Shown: in pieces, positions 1,985-19,784 of the stretch | Layout of the letters: each line of letters starts with the position of its first letter | How positions within the stretch are numbered: the stretch's first letter is position 1 | IMG/VR virus record: IMGVR_UViG_2713896901_000010 | DNA length: 35,122 bases | DNA from: a virus | Lineage: Duplodnaviria > Heunggongvirae > Uroviricota > Caudoviricetes | Strand: one strand, 5' to 3' | Notes under the pieces: model-generated | Told to the model about the DNA's origin: nothing | What the model saw: only the letters and a program-made list of their open reading frames with translations | The model's database searches: none | Made by a program: the position numbers and the translations under genes

Positions 1985-2241
1985 CACATCCCTGTGCCGC
2001 CGTTCTGTCAGAAGAACCCTGCCTTGTCGTTGATGTACTCCGCGTGGGTCTGGATATCACGCAGGCACTTGCTCACACCGACGATGTAGCAGAACATGGT
2101 GGTCAGCTCCGCCGCCGCGCCCGATACATCGTGCCCGTCGTCCTGTAACTGGTTAAGCAGATTCATCAGCAGTGAGTTCTCCGTCAGGCCGAGAACACCC
2201 GACGGCGAATGAATCAGACTGCGGTAGCCGGGCTTCAGCGG
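1985..2241. repeat. inverted repeat arm 2 (partner of 994-1248)
   Basis: Reverse complement matches 994-1248 at ~95%. Confidence 0.8.
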
Positions 2242-2952
2242 ATAACCATAACATTTTGTCTGTGTTTTAATTGCCTCACGAAGCGCATCTAACATCTTGA
2301 CTGCCACTTCATCATTCTCTGATGCAGATCCAGCAGGGAGATGCTCCCCTTCAAGCGGAACCCGAGCAACAAGAGACAACGCTTCGGCGAATTGATCTTC
2401 ATCAATTTCTTTGTACGAACAGCCAAAATGAGATTTCAGTGACGACCACATGGTGATCATCGCCTTAGCCTGTTTTTCTTTTGGCAGAGACTGACCGCGA
2501 CTCATGACGAGTTGTTTAATGGCTTCCTGCTGTTCAGTGGTTATTTTACCCGGCAGCGCCTTTTTAGCTTTGCGTGGGTTAACCACATGGCCTTTAGTCC
2601 AGTACTCGTAGAGCACATCGTCACACTCTTCCTGATACTGGATTACCTTGTCGCGGATTTCAGGGCGGACTTTGTTAGGGCTGATGGTTTGCAACCAGCC
2701 AGCAAGTTTGCGAAGTGCCAAACAAATAATCTCACGGCGCTGTTCATCCCCAGGAAGCTGCATTGTGATTTTCACAATGCAGGTTTTAAACCGCTGCTTC
2801 ATTTTCGTAAACTGTGAAGCCCAATCCATACCCATGCCTTCAACGATAGGTTTCATTGGGGTGTACGGTTCTCCGTTGTGATTGACAACATAAAGTTCTG
2901 CGCCGTGGAATGGCACGTTGATAGTAGATACCGCTGTTGCTATACTCGCCAT
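2008..2952 (-). CDS. ant: antirepressor Ant (P22 Ant-like N-terminus plus shared C-terminal module)
   Basis: ATG 2952 with AGGA upstream; N-terminus ...INVPFHGAELYVVNHNGEPYTPMKPIVEGMG resembles P22 Ant ...SYVPFNGQQVRTVLIDGEPWF; sits downstream of arc as in P22 immI. Confidence 0.8.
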   Translation of the reverse strand: MASIATAVSTINVPFHGAELYVVNHNGEPYTPMKPIVEGMGMDWASQFTKMKQRFKTCIVKITMQLPGDEQRREIICLALRKLAGWLQTISPNKVRPEIRDKVIQYQEECDDVLYEYWTKGHVVNPRKAKKALPGKITTEQQEAIKQLVMSRGQSLPKEKQAKAMITMWSSLKSHFGCSYKEIDEDQFAEALSLVARVPLEGEHLPAGSASENDEVAVKMLDALREAIKTQTKCYGYPLKPGYRSLIHSPSGVLGLTENSLLMNLLNQLQDDGHDVSGAAAELTTMFCYIVGVSKCLRDIQTHAEYINDKAGFF

Positions 2953-3024
2953 GTCGTTAATTCCTATACGTAGTTTTACGATACTGAAGCCCTGACGGTC
3001 TGGCCACCGTTGGGCTTCGCTGTT

Positions 3025-3192
3025 TTATGCCACGCTATTCTTCTCACCAGTGAGTCCATACACTTTCCTCAGCTGATAGATAATCTCTGTATTGAACTTT
3101 CGGCATTCTTTTTCGCCATTTCTTTCAATAGCTAACTTCACATCGTCCGGAAAACGAACTCGTCGTTGACACATCTCTTTTGCTTTTTGCAT
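3025..3192 (-). CDS. arc: Arc-like ribbon-helix-helix repressor (55 aa)
   Basis: Internal ATG 3192 with AAGGAG at 7-nt spacing; RRVRFPDDVKLAIERNGEKECRKFNTEIIYQL parallels P22 Arc RWPREVLDLVRKVAEENGRSVNSEIYQRV. Confidence 0.75.
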   Translation of the reverse strand: MQKAKEMCQRRVRFPDDVKLAIERNGEKECRKFNTEIIYQLRKVYGLTGEKNSVA

Positions 3193-3206
3193 TTCATATC
3201 TCCTTG

Positions 3207-3266
3207 GCCCCACCGTGGGGCAAAACAATTGTCACACCGTGCGTCATTGATGTCAAGCACACGGTG
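3207..3266. promoter_or_regulatory. divergent arc/mnt control region with three spaced CACCGTG/CACGGTG heptamers
   Basis: caccgtg 3211-3217 (inside palindrome gccccaccgtggggc 3207-3221), caccgtg 3235-3241, cacggtg 3260-3266; spacing 24 and 25 bp. Confidence 0.5.
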
Positions 3267-3312
3267 AGGCATACTTCAATCATTGCAAGTAACTCAATAT
3301 TTGGTGAAGAAC

Positions 3313-3744
3313 ATGAGCAGAGAAGATCCACAACTAAGGATCAGACTTCCCGTTGAAGTAAAAGAAAAAATAGAAATTTCTGCAAAAGCCAATAAGCGAT
3401 CAATGAACGCTGAAATAGTACAACGTCTTGACACCAGCTTTCTGAAAGATATTCATGAAGATGACGTAATTTCTGCTTATGAAGCAAAAATTATTGCAAA
3501 CAATGCACGGCATGAAATATCAAATATTATTTTCAAAAGAACTTTTAATGAAATCAATAAGAAAATAACACTTGGACATACAAGTTTTTATATAAACCTT
3601 AATGACCTTGAACTGGAATCACTTGCAGATAATGATTACCAGATCATCTTTGAAAAAACATTTAATAAGCTCAATGAACTAGGTTACATCATCTGTGAAA
3701 ACTCATGGGATGCAGATGGTTTTGGAATTGAAATACCTGAATAG
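3313..3744 (+). CDS. mnt: Mnt-like RHH repressor with ~60-aa extra C-terminal extension
   Basis: ATG 3313 (table start 3283 is TTG); MSREDPQLRIRLPVEVKEKIEISAKANKRSMNAEIVQRL closely parallels P22 Mnt MARDDPHFNFRMPMEVREKLKFRAEANGRSMNSELLQIV; divergent from arc-ant as in P22. Confidence 0.8.
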   Translation: MSREDPQLRIRLPVEVKEKIEISAKANKRSMNAEIVQRLDTSFLKDIHEDDVISAYEAKIIANNARHEISNIIFKRTFNEINKKITLGHTSFYINLNDLELESLADNDYQIIFEKTFNKLNELGYIICENSWDADGFGIEIPE

Positions 3745-3786
3745 GAAGAACAAAAGGCGTGTACATATTACACGTCTTTAATACAA

Positions 3787-4398
3787 TTGAAAAACGCCAC
3801 ATTACTGATGTATGTTACAACAAGGAGCGATATTTTGAAAACCATATCTATATTAAAGGTTGCATTAGGCGTCGCTATTATTTTGACTCTCTCAATATTG
3901 TTTTATTTTTACCACAAAAAAACTGCTATTGCTCTTGATGGTCACGCGGCAAACTCATTTTTCTCAGAGTACATAGTGCCGCTATCAGGAAGCGGTATAA
4001 CAAATAAATATACTGACTATGACATCAAATATGGAATTGATGATGGGGAGACTATTGCATTACATGTAATCATTAAAAACCTAATGACAGTAAATAAAAA
4101 TACAGACTTCAACGATAAAAATACAATACATCACAACAACAGCAAAACATTAATTTCTTATAGTAGCAACATCTATACGGATAAATACCTAAAATACATC
4201 TCAGAAGATACAATAAAAGCAACCAGCGAAAAGTTAAAAAACATATATTGTGCATCCGGCAGTTTTCACAAATTATCGCCGCAAGAGCGTTTATTCTACG
4301 AAGCAAGAAAACAACGTAAGTCAATAATATTCCATTATTATGCTGATTCAGGGGAGTCACTCATATTTAATATTGGGGTTTCCCCTGAATCATGCTAA
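3787..4398 (+). CDS. membrane-anchored protein of unknown function at the sieA position
   Basis: Most likely start is TTG 3835 (AAGGAG 3822-3827, 7-nt spacer), alternative ATG 3808; one N-terminal TM helix then an Asn/Lys/Tyr-rich domain; very AT-rich. Confidence 0.55.
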   Translation: MKNATLLMYVTTRSDILKTISILKVALGVAIILTLSILFYFYHKKTAIALDGHAANSFFSEYIVPLSGSGITNKYTDYDIKYGIDDGETIALHVIIKNLMTVNKNTDFNDKNTIHHNNSKTLISYSSNIYTDKYLKYISEDTIKATSEKLKNIYCASGSFHKLSPQERLFYEARKQRKSIIFHYYADSGESLIFNIGVSPESC

Positions 4399-4409: not shown

Positions 4410-7400
4410 TCACCGCATCACCGGATCCACCTGGTTTATTAGTGGCGCAATCCAGAACAGGTTATTGCCTGGTATCAGGGTTCGGACATTATGCACAATA
4501 CGATCACCGGCATCACCATTCAACACTCCTGCGGTCACATCAATGATGCTATCCGCAAGACCAAATGACGGTCCGAATAGAGATCCTACGAATCCACGAC
4601 TGGCATACCTAGACTGTGTGCCAGTGCCAAATAAAGCCCCCAGCCCAACAGCACCACCAGTAGCCTTTTCAGCCATGTTGTTATATTCCATCAATGGCCC
4701 AAGAATACCGGATCTATCTATACCCTCAAGCACCAGCTTCTCTGGTGACCAGTCAACATTTTTCCCTTTCGATGCTTCTTTTAGCGCATAGACCAGTGAG
4801 CCAAGAGCAATCTGAAATGCAGTGCCATAATAAAATTGCGCAGTTCCTTCCTGTAACCCACCAAGTAGCGCACGGTTGTATGAAGCCGTTGTGAATGATT
4901 TAAACTGAAATATCGTTCGCCCCATTGGAGTACTCGCCCATAAAGGTGTGTCACCAATACCGGGGGTGATGATAGTGTTATTAACGTCTTTCAGAACCGC
5001 TGACTGGAATACTCCGGCAACGTACTGATCGTCCCATTTATCAAAGTTACCAATGTGCCATCCATCAATTACCTCACCATGTTTCTCGAACTCACTGCGA
5101 ATACGCGCAGCCATATTGTCGTTGATACCGAGTTTTGCCATGCGACGTGCAGAAAACGCACCAGACAAAATACCGTCTGACGTGAGCATTCCGTTCATGG
5201 ATTTGTTTATGTCATTAAATCGATCCATGAGTGTCAGCTTGCCGAAGGCATCAGTAATTCGCTCCATTCCTGCTTCGACTGCTGTTGTCCTGGAAGAACT
5301 GTCAACAAGATCACCAATTGCACGAGAACGTGAATGTAGTACAGCTTCCAATCCAATCCCCATCTTCAACATCTCTTCTTTGCTGGCCTTAAATGCCGGT
5401 GATTGGGATATCTGAGAAGCATAGCCTTTCATGGTGTTACGGAAACCATTAACCATAACCCCTCTGGCCAGATCTGGAATAGCTGATACTGTCATTCCAC
5501 CGAGTTTGGTCGTGAAGTTCACATCCCGCAGAAAAGCGCCAGCACGAACAAAAAACGAAGACGGATCATCAGGCATACCATATGTACCAACAAGACGATC
5601 GCGTAATGCTGTTATGTCTCTGAGATCATTTGCTCTTGATTTTGAAAGTCTGGACTGTTCTTTCCGTAATTCCTTTTCGTACTTTCGCATTAATGAATCG
5701 AGTTTACCCTGAGGAACAACTTCACCATTGCTCTCATAACGTGCTTTCAGATTTGCCACACTTTCGTCATATTTCGCCTTTATTTTTTCAGGCACTTCCC
5801 GTAACAGACTGTCATATTCGTCCTCAATTAATTGCAGACGCTCAGTCATAGTTCGTTTGCCAAATGTTCTCGTCAACTCAATTTCTGCTGCCGCTTCACG
5901 GATATGACGTTGCAGCACGTAATTCACATCACTTTCAAGATAATCCCTGATAAGACTATCAGGAACATTTAATGTTCTTTCTTTCGTACTACCTGCGGCT
6001 TTTACAGAAAATACGCTGACAAAATCCTGTGGAACCTTAGCACCAGTAATTTTATTAATTACGATATCCGCTGCAATTTCAGCATCCTCAGGATCCAGTG
6101 TTTTATTTCCTCTCGACCACCAGCCAACCAAAATACGTCGAAATTTATCGCGTTCACTGATTATTTTTCCAACTTTATATATGCGTGGGAAATAGCTTGC
6201 CTGGCCTAATGCTTTCAGTTCTTCATCTGGCGGCAATAAACCAAGCTTTTGCATTTCAACTTTCACCCGATTTAATACAGTTCGCATCGCCTGCGCCGTT
6301 TCCTGAACAACAGGATTAGCATGCACATCACCGCTTCGCATAGCATTCCCAACCTGCTGACGAAATGAATCAAAACTCATGTCACCACCATCAGCTTTAT
6401 ACTTTGCGTATGCCTGTTTATTTCCGACAACAACAGCAGCTTCTTCACGCTGCCATCCACGTGTACGGGTTTCTACAGCTACCGGTGTTTCAATCCCCCT
6501 TTCATTTCCTTTAAGGGTGAAATTATTTTCGGCTAACTCCAGCGTTGTTTTTCGCACCGTCTTGGACGGAGACTCCATTAACCTTGTCAAAGGAGTAAGA
6601 TAGCTCCCTGCTTTCCATGCAGCCTTTCCAACCCACCCACCGGAAACAGGGGTTAAATCATCCAGAGTCGCTGTATCAATTTTCATAGCACCAACACTAC
6701 CACCATCGGAAAGCGAAGCGGCAGCCCTGTCAGTCGCTGATGTAATGCTCATATTATCAAGAGCATCAGCAACCTCACGTGTGGCTGCAGCCCGGACGGA
6801 TGGCGAAAGCGCAACACCAGCACTGGCAAACACGCCGCTCATCATCGCACCCGCTGCAACGTGAGCGGCACTTTCACCCCATGAGCGTGTTATTTGCTGA
6901 TTATTCAGTACAACCTCGCTTAATGCTGTACCGGCAGCACCAATCGCAATCTGTGAGCCAATACGCGCCAGTGCCCCTCCTTGAGCACCGGGAATAAACA
7001 TTGACGCAACAGTAACCGGATCCATTCCCGCAGCAATACTGGCAAGGGTTCCAACTACGCCAGCATCAGACAATAAACGTCTGTCTTCATTTTCATCATC
7101 TATCTGCTGCTTAATCCACGCCGTTTCCTCTGGCGATCGGGAATCTGCAAATTTCGCCCCCCAGTATTCATAACCGTGCAACTCATTTTTATCAGCATAT
7201 GGGTTATAACCCTCGACCGGTTCAAACTGTCTGGCTGGGCGGAAAAAACCAGACAGAATATTGTTCTGTCGCATTGCAGCCCCCCATACGGAAGGCTCAG
7301 GTGGCAATGGCTCAGGATTAGCCCCTTCCGGAAGGGCAACATCAAACCCAGTTTGTTCCGGCAAAACATTACCTGACGGGATCAGTCCGTTATTAAGATC

Positions 7401-7424
7401 TTCAGCTTGTGCATAAACTGGCAT
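4410..7424 (-). CDS. internal virion / ejection protein (1004 aa)
   Basis: Long ORF ending the structural operon; Ala/Gly-rich hydrophobic N-terminal third; size and position analogous to T7 gp16 / P22 gp16-class ejection proteins. Confidence 0.7.
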   Translation of the reverse strand: MPVYAQAEDLNNGLIPSGNVLPEQTGFDVALPEGANPEPLPPEPSVWGAAMRQNNILSGFFRPARQFEPVEGYNPYADKNELHGYEYWGAKFADSRSPEETAWIKQQIDDENEDRRLLSDAGVVGTLASIAAGMDPVTVASMFIPGAQGGALARIGSQIAIGAAGTALSEVVLNNQQITRSWGESAAHVAAGAMMSGVFASAGVALSPSVRAAATREVADALDNMSITSATDRAAASLSDGGSVGAMKIDTATLDDLTPVSGGWVGKAAWKAGSYLTPLTRLMESPSKTVRKTTLELAENNFTLKGNERGIETPVAVETRTRGWQREEAAVVVGNKQAYAKYKADGGDMSFDSFRQQVGNAMRSGDVHANPVVQETAQAMRTVLNRVKVEMQKLGLLPPDEELKALGQASYFPRIYKVGKIISERDKFRRILVGWWSRGNKTLDPEDAEIAADIVINKITGAKVPQDFVSVFSVKAAGSTKERTLNVPDSLIRDYLESDVNYVLQRHIREAAAEIELTRTFGKRTMTERLQLIEDEYDSLLREVPEKIKAKYDESVANLKARYESNGEVVPQGKLDSLMRKYEKELRKEQSRLSKSRANDLRDITALRDRLVGTYGMPDDPSSFFVRAGAFLRDVNFTTKLGGMTVSAIPDLARGVMVNGFRNTMKGYASQISQSPAFKASKEEMLKMGIGLEAVLHSRSRAIGDLVDSSSRTTAVEAGMERITDAFGKLTLMDRFNDINKSMNGMLTSDGILSGAFSARRMAKLGINDNMAARIRSEFEKHGEVIDGWHIGNFDKWDDQYVAGVFQSAVLKDVNNTIITPGIGDTPLWASTPMGRTIFQFKSFTTASYNRALLGGLQEGTAQFYYGTAFQIALGSLVYALKEASKGKNVDWSPEKLVLEGIDRSGILGPLMEYNNMAEKATGGAVGLGALFGTGTQSRYASRGFVGSLFGPSFGLADSIIDVTAGVLNGDAGDRIVHNVRTLIPGNNLFWIAPLINQVDPVMR

Positions 7425-14259: not shown

Positions 14260-14585
14260 TCCCCCCCGTTACCGTAGAGGGTTTCAGCCGCTGATTTTTC
14301 TACATCACCGGAAACAGGAGCGATTGCCATATCAGTGATCTGCAGATCGGCGCTGCGATTAACACCATCGTCAGTTTCTCTGGCAGACAGGCCTCGAATA
14401 ACAGCCTTTGCAGTTATCATCACTTCTGTTCCGACGCCCTGAGGTTGCGCCTTCAGCTTATTCAATGTGTCGTTATTAAGAGTGATGCACAGCCCCCACG
14501 GGTATTCATCGCGAGTTCTGGTTTCTCCGCTCTCATCCTGGTAGCTGTCAGTGCCGGTTTTGAGGTTTACGAGTTCCATATACAC
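14256..14585 (-). CDS. hypothetical virion-module protein (109 aa)
   Basis: AGGAG RBS after an intercistronic hairpin; 4-bp overlap with downstream gene. Confidence 0.45.
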   Translation of the reverse strand: MYMELVNLKTGTDSYQDESGETRTRDEYPWGLCITLNNDTLNKLKAQPQGVGTEVMITAKAVIRGLSARETDDGVNRSADLQITDMAIAPVSGDVEKSAAETLYGNGGE

Positions 14586-14629
14586 TCCTGCAATAAAGGG
14601 GCCGAAGCCCCTTGTCGGATTCGCGAGGC

Positions 14630-14974
14630 TTACACGCCCAGTTCTTTACGCTTATCTGCGATCTTCTCGCGGAGCGTTTCGGCTTTAGCGTTATGGTGTG
14701 GCTTCTCGTTAAAGAGCAATTCGTACTCTTCACGGAGCTTATCCAGTTCACCATCATCTGACACATCGTTGATGATTTTGGTGCTGGTTGCTGCCATAGA
14801 CACCTTTCCTGCTACCTTTGCTTTTGCCTGTCTGGCTGCATCGTTAACAGGTTCCAGTGCGCTACCAGGCTCACCTTTGTATTCGATTTCTGCCCCCTCC
14901 GGCCACAGTGTGTTATGGATATGAGAGAGGCGCAGAACGCGGTATCTTGGTTTCTCACCTGACATCGATATCAC
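14630..14974 (-). CDS. hypothetical virion-module protein (114 aa)
   Basis: In-operon ORF between capsid and tail genes. Confidence 0.45.
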   Translation of the reverse strand: MISMSGEKPRYRVLRLSHIHNTLWPEGAEIEYKGEPGSALEPVNDAARQAKAKVAGKVSMAATSTKIINDVSDDGELDKLREEYELLFNEKPHHNAKAETLREKIADKRKELGV

Positions 14975-19462: not shown

Positions 19463-19784
19463 CCAAAGAGCTCATTCCGGTTACTAACCTGACTGGCTTG
19501 TCGTTAAATTGAACAGGTGGAGTGAGCTTTTATTTTGAGCAGTACGGCGTATGGCACATGCGACGATAGCGGTCTGGATACGTTTAAGGGGCACCCTCCC
19601 TTGCTCGGGCAAACGAACCAGGTAGCCGGAATGTGCAAGTCGAGCGGTTTTATTCCGCGCACGGGGATTAACCATCCCGGCGATTCGGTGTGACGCCTCG
19701 GAAGAGACGAGGGTACAACGATGAGAGCATTTATGGAGCCGCGACAAAGTGTGGCGCCTTAACAGGCTAAGTGCTCTCAGCGTT

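Follow-up and report, generated by a model that had tools for sequence, protein, structure and literature searches.

A P22 immunity-I-type antirepressor cassette with a long Mnt-like protein and three operator-like sites in an epsilon15/phiV10-like Escherichia coli prophage

The DNA considered here is a viral stretch of 35,122 nucleotides assigned to the Caudoviricetes (IMG/VR record IMGVR_UViG_2713896901_000010), referred to below as the window, and it carries at positions 2008-3744 an antirepressor cassette of the type known as immunity I (immI) in bacteriophage P22. The cassette contains the antirepressor gene ant, the antisense RNA sar and two small repressor-like genes, one related to arc and the other a long relative of mnt, which diverge from an intergenic region with three operator-like sites. 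The cassette is genuine and broadly conserved, and represents a variation on a system already known, not a system of a new kind. Taken as a whole, the region is probably a P22 immI-type antirepressor switch of an epsilon15/phiV10-like Escherichia coli prophage in which the long Mnt-like protein acts at all three sites. In the most likely mechanism suggested by the sequence, this protein would hold ant off via the three evenly spaced sites.

In P22 immI, Ant inactivates the prophage repressor and Mnt is needed for the maintenance of lysogeny. The P22 region (mnt/arc/sar/ant) has been described as the 'ant moron' of P22-like phages (PMC2629481). The present cassette shares with it the gene set and gene order, the position of sar between arc and ant, the N-terminal domain of Ant, the ribbon-helix-helix domain of the Mnt type and an operator with a CCAC-N-GTGG core just downstream of the -10 hexamer of the ant promoter. 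However, the phage that hosts the cassette is epsilon15/phiV10-like, not P22-like.

Gene content and protein families

Open reading frames (ORFs), domain assignments and pairwise matches give a gene order in which the mnt-like gene (3313-3744, plus strand) diverges from an operon of the arc-like gene (3025-3192, minus strand) and ant (2008-2952, minus strand). The original prediction had recognised this P22 arrangement, with an Arc-like protein of 55 amino acids (aa) and an Mnt-like protein of 143 aa, and both genes are present as described; ant lies outside the range which that prediction covered. Ant (314 aa) matches the P22_AR_N domain (PF10547) with 151.9 bits against a cut-off of 30.7, falls in the PHROG 'anti-repressor Ant' families and is 40% identical to P22 Ant across 217 aa. 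The Mnt-like protein matches PF03869 with 54.5 bits (cut-off 20.4), which places a ribbon-helix-helix domain at residues 2-46, and it is 32% identical to P22 Mnt over the whole of the latter in a BLAST alignment that reaches residue 86.

The identification as immI is made firm by sar, which the original prediction did not list. A match to Rfam RF00262 on the plus strand at 2954-3021 covers the full model (1-68) and scores 45.2 bits, above the gathering score of 43 (E 1.1e-7). It has the stem GAAGCCC...GGGCTTC in common with P22, and its sequence is the complement of the region between arc and ant and of the ribosome-binding site of ant. A plus-strand site inside the 5' end of ant (2918-2946; TTGATA-17-TATACT with TG) scores 10/12 in a consensus scan; it may serve as the sar promoter, and P22 Psar occupies the same relative position. 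In 14 related loci of other genera, no sar RNA reaches the gathering score, so that sar is not typical of the wider family as a whole.

The cassette is present at a coverage of at least 80% in 36 of 5,426 complete E. coli genomes. TL-2011b (NC_019445) is the only isolated phage that carries it at the DNA level, with 99.1% identity; this nearest phage came from an enterohaemorrhagic E. coli outbreak strain.

The mnt-like gene begins at the ATG at 3313, not 3314, and a mechanical ORF list begins it at a TTG at 3283. The original prediction had regarded the C-terminal extension of its product as novel and had named a wrongly called start or stop as the result that would undo it. Such an artefact is excluded, and the length of 143 aa is genuine, given that the protein matches the 143-position profile of phrog_1388 end to end (1-143 to 1-143, E 5.1e-72) and that homologues of 142-150 aa occur across the Enterobacterales. 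The extension is conserved but already in databases: 262 relatives emerged when 5.8 billion proteins were searched, most of those listed being 142-150 aa long, from Citrobacter, Enterobacter, Yersinia, Proteus, Salmonella and others, and named 'Arc family DNA-binding protein' where the source names them. Thus the window protein is an ordinary full-length member of phrog_1388, or of the NCBI 'Arc family DNA-binding protein', and the extension belongs to a populous and annotated family. That family is uncharacterised and has no assigned function, and the literature library that was searched contained no characterisation of the long Mnt-like proteins.

Profile matches in the Protein Data Bank (PDB) to pArc, AmrZ, Mnt (1mnt) and Arc cover residues 2-47 only, and Foldseek aligned the monomer model with 1par at a probability of 0.97. 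Across all 38 aligned homologues the N-terminal sequence MSREDPQLRIRLP hardly changes: Q7, R9 and R11, the residues that putatively face the DNA, are the same in every one, and a few homologues differ at positions 8 and 12. P22 Mnt itself (P22 record, 14519-14770) and its families PHROG 795 and 2685 are labelled 'partition protein ATPase' in RefSeq and PHROGs, a label that is unfit for an 83-aa ribbon-helix-helix repressor; it is an annotation error and will probably spread as annotations are transferred.

The arc-like gene, the first of the arc-ant operon, starts at an ATG at 3192 with AAGGAG upstream, and its homologues are likewise 55 aa long. Pairwise comparison with P22 Arc gave 33% identity over 40 aa (E 4e-5), and comparison with phrog_228 ('Arc-like repressor') gave E 3e-5. 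An hhalign comparison of the Arc-like and Mnt-like families aligned them in register with a probability of 83.5%, so that Q9, R11 and R13 of the Arc-like protein stand opposite Q7, R9 and R11 of the Mnt-like protein. The putative DNA-facing residues are Q-R-R here, compared with H-N-R in P22 Mnt and Q-N-R in P22 Arc. An Arc-like gene is the divergent neighbour of the mnt-like gene in all 14 loci from reference genomes.

Operator-like sites, promoters and their conservation

The intergenic DNA between the two repressor-like genes is 120 base pairs (bp) long (3193-3312) and contains three CACSGTG heptamers. They lie exactly where the original prediction placed them, as CACCGTG at 3211 and 3235 and CACGGTG at 3260, with centre-to-centre distances of 24 and 25 bp. 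The 35-kb window contains five such heptamers, against 4.0 expected from shuffled sequences, and three of the five fall within 56 bp. A Poisson estimate from the shuffle-based counts puts the expected number of such triplets in the window at about 1e-4, and the clustering is not due to chance. Each heptamer forms the centre of a 17-bp dyad, TGNCNCAC-N-GTGNGNCA, and a repeat search found a 12-nucleotide direct register, CACSGTGNGNCA, shared by the three sites.

These sites are interleaved with two promoter-like sequences. The promoter-like sequence of the arc-ant operon (Pant; 3228-3256, minus strand) combines a -35 hexamer TTGACA (3256-3251), a 17-bp spacer and a TG-extended -10 hexamer GACAAT (3233-3228), and scores 10/12 in the consensus scan. 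Site 1 (GGCCCCACCGTGGGGCA; 3206-3222), in which the inner 15 bp form a perfect dyad, would occupy approximately +1 to +16 of Pant. Site 2 (TGTCACACCGTGCGTCA; 3230-3246) overlaps the -10 hexamer and spacer of Pant and abuts the -35 hexamer of a putative promoter of the mnt-like gene (Pmnt; 3247-3275, plus strand). Pmnt was read from the sequence as TTGATG (3247-3252), a 17-bp spacer and CATACT (3270-3275), and its -35 hexamer stands back-to-back with that of Pant and overlaps it. Site 3 (AAGCACACGGTGAGGCA; 3255-3271) lies in the spacer and -10 hexamer of Pmnt and touches the -35 hexamer of Pant. Site 1 is the perfect dyad in the window and site 3 the most degenerate, in a form that is a variant of the E. 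coli clade.

Conservation of the array was assessed in loci that encode full-length relatives, 14 from reference genomes and 74 from viral contigs, which gave 59 distinct upstream regions from 89 loci in many genera of the Enterobacterales; the proteins of these relatives are 57-69% identical to the window protein. Sites 2 and 3 are kept in 58 of the 59 regions and are 25 bp apart in 57 of those 58, and three exact CACNGTG heptamers occur in 50 of the 59, most of the others having a degenerate first site, CAATGTG. The distance between sites 1 and 2 is 24, 26 or 27 bp across the relatives. A block of about 50 bp is near-invariant, and its flanks vary; it includes sites 2 and 3, the -35 and -10 hexamers of Pant, and those of Pmnt, of which the -10 hexamer is CATAAT in most relatives. 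Site 1 takes the form TGCC[CT]CAC-N-GTG[GA]G[GA]CA in the related loci, site 2 is identical in 50 of the 58 distinct regions (TGTCACAC-C-GTGCGTCA), and site 3 forms a perfect dyad in most relatives, AACCCCAC-N-GTGGGGCA; its central base varies among all four nucleotides, which fits the axis of a dyad.

The original prediction had described the heptamers as unlike the P22 operators, which proved incorrect. The P22 record annotates O_mnt at 14822-14844, and the 17-bp dyad read from that sequence, AGGTCCACGGTGGACCT, has the heptamer at its centre, the core CCAC-N-GTGG being common to both phages. On the arc strand, site 1 matches P22 O_mnt at 11 of 17 positions, and its centre lies 14 bp past the -10 hexamer of Pant, compared with 15 bp for O_mnt. 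Other features differ from P22. There is one site of the Mnt type in P22 immI and there are three here, and the two P22 promoters overlap nearly fully (14793-14821 and 14798-14826), whereas only the -35 hexamers overlap in the window. Furthermore, the Arc operator of P22, a 21-bp element with TAGA boxes, stands between the -35 and -10 hexamers of Pant, a position that is taken here by site 2 with its Mnt-type dyad; neither TAGA nor TCTA occurs in 3193-3312.

Related arrays occur beyond the full-length family and its Arc-like partner. Filamentous Pf inoviruses of Pseudomonas encode a long Mnt protein that is 42% identical to the window protein, C-terminal module included, and have three GGGAyCAC-S-GTGrTCCC dyads upstream, spaced by 25-28 and 26 bp. 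The architecture is the same, with three CACSGTG-centred dyads and the same TTGCTGTCAA block between sites 2 and 3, but the half-site is GGGAyCAC and the divergent gene encodes a Xis-like (excisionase-like) helix-turn-helix protein in place of arc-ant. In one class of Pf prophages, an Arc-family variant replaces the usual Pf repressor (PMC7549136). Eleven further loci, from Acinetobacter, Giesbergeria, Pseudorhodoferax, Rhizobium, Xenorhabdus, Serratia and Pluralibacter, encode proteins of 87-201 aa that begin with MSREDPQL[RK][IV]R[LI]P and have unrelated C-termini; three sites lie upstream of their genes (two in Rhizobium), and the gene that diverges from the repressor gene in the Xenorhabdus and Serratia loci encodes a helical protein of 58 aa outside the ribbon-helix-helix class. 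Because the array is present with unrelated C-termini and with partners other than Arc, it goes with the Mnt-type N-terminal domain and not with the extension or the Arc-like partner. Any link between extension and triple array that the original prediction may have implied therefore does not hold, and it is chiefly on account of this association with the N-terminal domain that all three sites are assigned here to the Mnt-like protein.

Two sets of such loci have features of their own. Five in Xenorhabdus and Serratia (L018, L021, L022, L025 and L027) combine a repressor of 107-109 aa, with the N-terminus MSREDPQLRVRIP and three CACSGTG sites, with a conserved helical protein of 57-58 aa (M[TSA]IK[VI][ST]QL[NH]H...) as divergent partner, and all five have a second ribbon-helix-helix gene on the opposite strand about 340-470 bp downstream of the start of the repressor/partner gene. 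A Pluralibacter metagenome-assembled genome (L020, 3830-4265) has the same Arc-like gene and three operators beside an Mnt-like protein of 87 aa whose C-terminus differs after about residue 37, the C-terminal module having apparently been exchanged while the DNA-binding domain and the operators stayed the same.

Proposed regulation and alternative readings

In the proposed mechanism, Pant would drive the arc-like gene and ant leftward and Pmnt would drive the long mnt-like gene rightward. The Mnt-like protein would bind all three 17-bp dyads with two dimers each, in the manner of P22 Mnt at its single operator. In a lysogen, sites 1 and 2 would be filled, which would block the arc-ant promoter, and at a higher level of the protein site 3 would be filled as well and limit its own synthesis through negative autoregulation. 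This order of filling, with the sites on the ant side first, is proposed because site 1 is the best dyad in the window and site 3 the worst; autoregulation may be tighter in most other genera, since site 3 is a perfect dyad there. As in P22, sar would act as an antisense RNA on the translation of ant. After infection, the Arc-like protein would be made from the transcript of Ant and would probably shut the operon via the same sites and so limit Ant, the same sites being proposed because the Q-x-R-x-R residues are in register in the two families and because the intergenic DNA has no separate conserved dyad.

The C-terminal region of the Mnt-like protein is 97 aa long, compared with 38 aa in P22 Mnt, and the two have no detectable similarity in sequence. 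P22 Mnt is an 83-aa tetramer with a C-terminal coiled-coil tetramerisation domain at about residues 52-82. The AlphaFold2 model of the window protein has a predicted local distance difference test (pLDDT) score of 79.9, and of about 90 over residues 70-140, and comprises the two helices of the ribbon-helix-helix domain (2-46), a long helix (55-87) and a small alpha/beta domain (88-143) with a strand-helix-strand module to residue 140. The long helix stands where P22 Mnt has its coiled coil, a likeness of place and not demonstrated homology. Residues from about 47 to 143 would most likely assemble the dimer of dimers on 17-bp operators of two half-sites spaced 24-25 bp apart, and the region may possibly provide contacts between neighbouring tetramers.

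The original prediction had suggested a sensor or partner-binding function for the extension, such that a ligand or a protein would release repression and give the switch an additional input. The exchange of C-terminal modules on the same N-terminus and operators, as in the 87-aa Pluralibacter protein, would suit this idea, as would the polar residues H89, D98 and D133, which are invariant or nearly so, and the confinement of the extension domain to the long Mnt-like family. That confinement was seen in a profile of the last 58 residues, which gave 15 matches at E <= 0.001 among 1.84 billion representatives: the strong ones (E <= 1e-10) are the same family or fragments of it, the weakest few look spurious (e.g., P0129, 511 aa, aligned in six short stretches), and no other architecture was found. 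Foldseek searches of the monomer model against the PDB returned the Arc domain only, and in a BFVD fold search every match was an uncharacterised phage protein of about 90 aa, with E never below 0.001. No match in these fold and sequence searches points to a sensor or partner-binding role, and such a role is judged distinctly improbable.

A division of the sites closer to P22 is somewhat less improbable, although it too is unlikely. Under this division, site 1 alone would be an operator of the Mnt type, and sites 2 and 3, on either side of the shared -35 region, would be operators of the Arc-like protein through which both promoters are shut. Site 2 indeed lies between the -35 and -10 hexamers of Pant, where P22 has O_arc, and its flanks (GTCACAC / GTGCGTCA) are distinct from those of sites 1 and 3 and invariant, so that they could mark a second specificity; the Q-x-[KR]-x-R strand of the Arc-like protein suits a related sequence, and the intergenic DNA offers no other conserved dyad that might be a separate Arc operator. 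However, the array persists where the divergent gene encodes no ribbon-helix-helix protein, as with the Xis-like gene of Pf and the 58-aa helical protein of Xenorhabdus and Serratia, and the invariance of site 2 is partly explained by its overlap with the -10 hexamer of Pant. Covariation between the strand residues of the Arc-like protein and the operators was examined across loci, and the changes are bound to lineage rather than independent. Far less probable than either of these readings is that the heptamers are a chance cluster or have a role outside transcription, for example as a partition-type centromere that a ribbon-helix-helix protein would recognise. Heptad arrays at plasmid centromeres are targets of some ribbon-helix-helix proteins, and the 'partition protein ATPase' label of the P22 Mnt family points the same way. 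Yet this reading is opposed by the low expectation for such triplets, by the conservation of position and spacing in 58 distinct loci, in overlap with promoter hexamers, by the lack of a ParA-type gene adjoining the cassette and by the experimental definition of P22 Mnt as a repressor.

Repression by the Mnt-like protein at all three sites is thus preferred, and several observations weigh against it. The distinct flanks of site 2 are one of these, and the putative Pmnt, at 8/12, falls below the scan threshold in the window. The Arc-like protein has no Pfam match, its profile matches PDB Arc marginally (E 0.06-0.12), and its AlphaFold2 model, built with 17 homologues, has a low pLDDT of 59.7, with two helices at the expected places. 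In TL-2011b, a run of G at codon 9 or 10 of mnt (window 3338-3339) is one base longer, which breaks the frame, which is why the record calls a 113-aa hypothetical protein there; either mnt is dispensable or inactivated by mutation in that phage, or the additional base is a homopolymer sequencing error. Residues 47-143 have no significant match among PDB sequences, the Mnt tetramerisation domain included, and fold searches gave weak matches only for this region, so the oligomerisation role of the extension is a guess from its position. Finally, we infer every assignment of a protein to a site.

The layout recalls the lambda right operator OR1-OR2-OR3, which likewise places three 17-bp dyads, 24-25 bp apart from centre to centre, between divergent promoters (PR and PRM), a likeness of geometry only. 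As in lambda, one of the outer sites lies within the promoter of the repressor gene itself, the opposite transcript encodes another small repressor, and the middle site abuts the -35 hexamer of the repressor promoter, the centre of site 2 being at about -44 of the putative Pmnt. Unlike in lambda, the proteins are of the ribbon-helix-helix and not the helix-turn-helix class, a tetramer rather than a dimer is proposed for each site, and the target is an antirepressor operon rather than a lytic early operon. A more far-reaching reading would make the cassette a bistable switch built entirely from ribbon-helix-helix proteins, in which the Mnt-like and Arc-like paralogues compete for the three operators with opposite orders of affinity, like CI and Cro, and the alpha/beta module provides cooperativity between tetramers. 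This reading extends to cross-repression of antirepressors among unrelated prophages, proposed because the DNA-binding strand and the operators are near-invariant across the Enterobacterales, which would form a shared second-immunity network. In its entirety it is doubtful.

Genomic surroundings and significance

The cassette occupies a genome position at which antirepressor genes differ between phages. Its place in the genome is comparable to that of the P22 cassette, and at the corresponding place phiV10, a relative with neither mnt nor arc, carries a Bro-N gene between the virion structural genes and the tail fibre gene. The 3' end of ant (2007-2241) is 89% identical to phiV10 19550-19768, part of this Bro-N gene region, which suggests that antirepressor genes are exchanged at this position by recombination within a shared C-terminal segment. 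In ten downstream genes that were scanned among the relatives, the family varies between P22_AR_N, Bro-N and KilA-N. Between about 2242 and 10234, no part of the window matches phiV10 at the DNA level, although the flanks do so at about 86-98%, and the virion genes there are a diverged allele set. Within this part, an ORF at 4410-7424 (minus strand; 1004 aa) has no Pfam domain, is hypothetical in TL-2011b and adjoins a gene annotated 'endolysin'.

Directly 3' of the mnt-like stop codon, a hairpin, CGTGTA-CATAT-TACACG (3758-3774), may be a terminator; a terminator-like scan called it on the minus strand only, and a weak T-run on the plus strand was read by eye. Further downstream on the same strand as the mnt-like gene, where P22 has sieA, an ORF at 3835-4398 (plus strand) encodes a protein of 187 aa that has a hydrophobic segment in its N-terminal part. 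The protein belongs over its full length to phrog_8033, to which no function is assigned, and comparison with P22 SieA showed no similarity.

Antirepressor modules set the time of prophage induction and give prophages in the same host a means of affecting each other, including in pathogenic E. coli. The P22 version is the only one known to have been dissected, and the three-operator variant appears to be the commoner design. The combination of a three-operator array with a Mnt-type N-terminal domain extends from the filamentous phages of Pseudomonas to the tailed prophages of enterobacteria. If the proposed reading is correct, this combination would constitute a repressor-operator unit that is compact and portable and whose C-terminal modules can be exchanged, and cross-immunity at the level of the antirepressor would be predicted between otherwise unrelated prophages.

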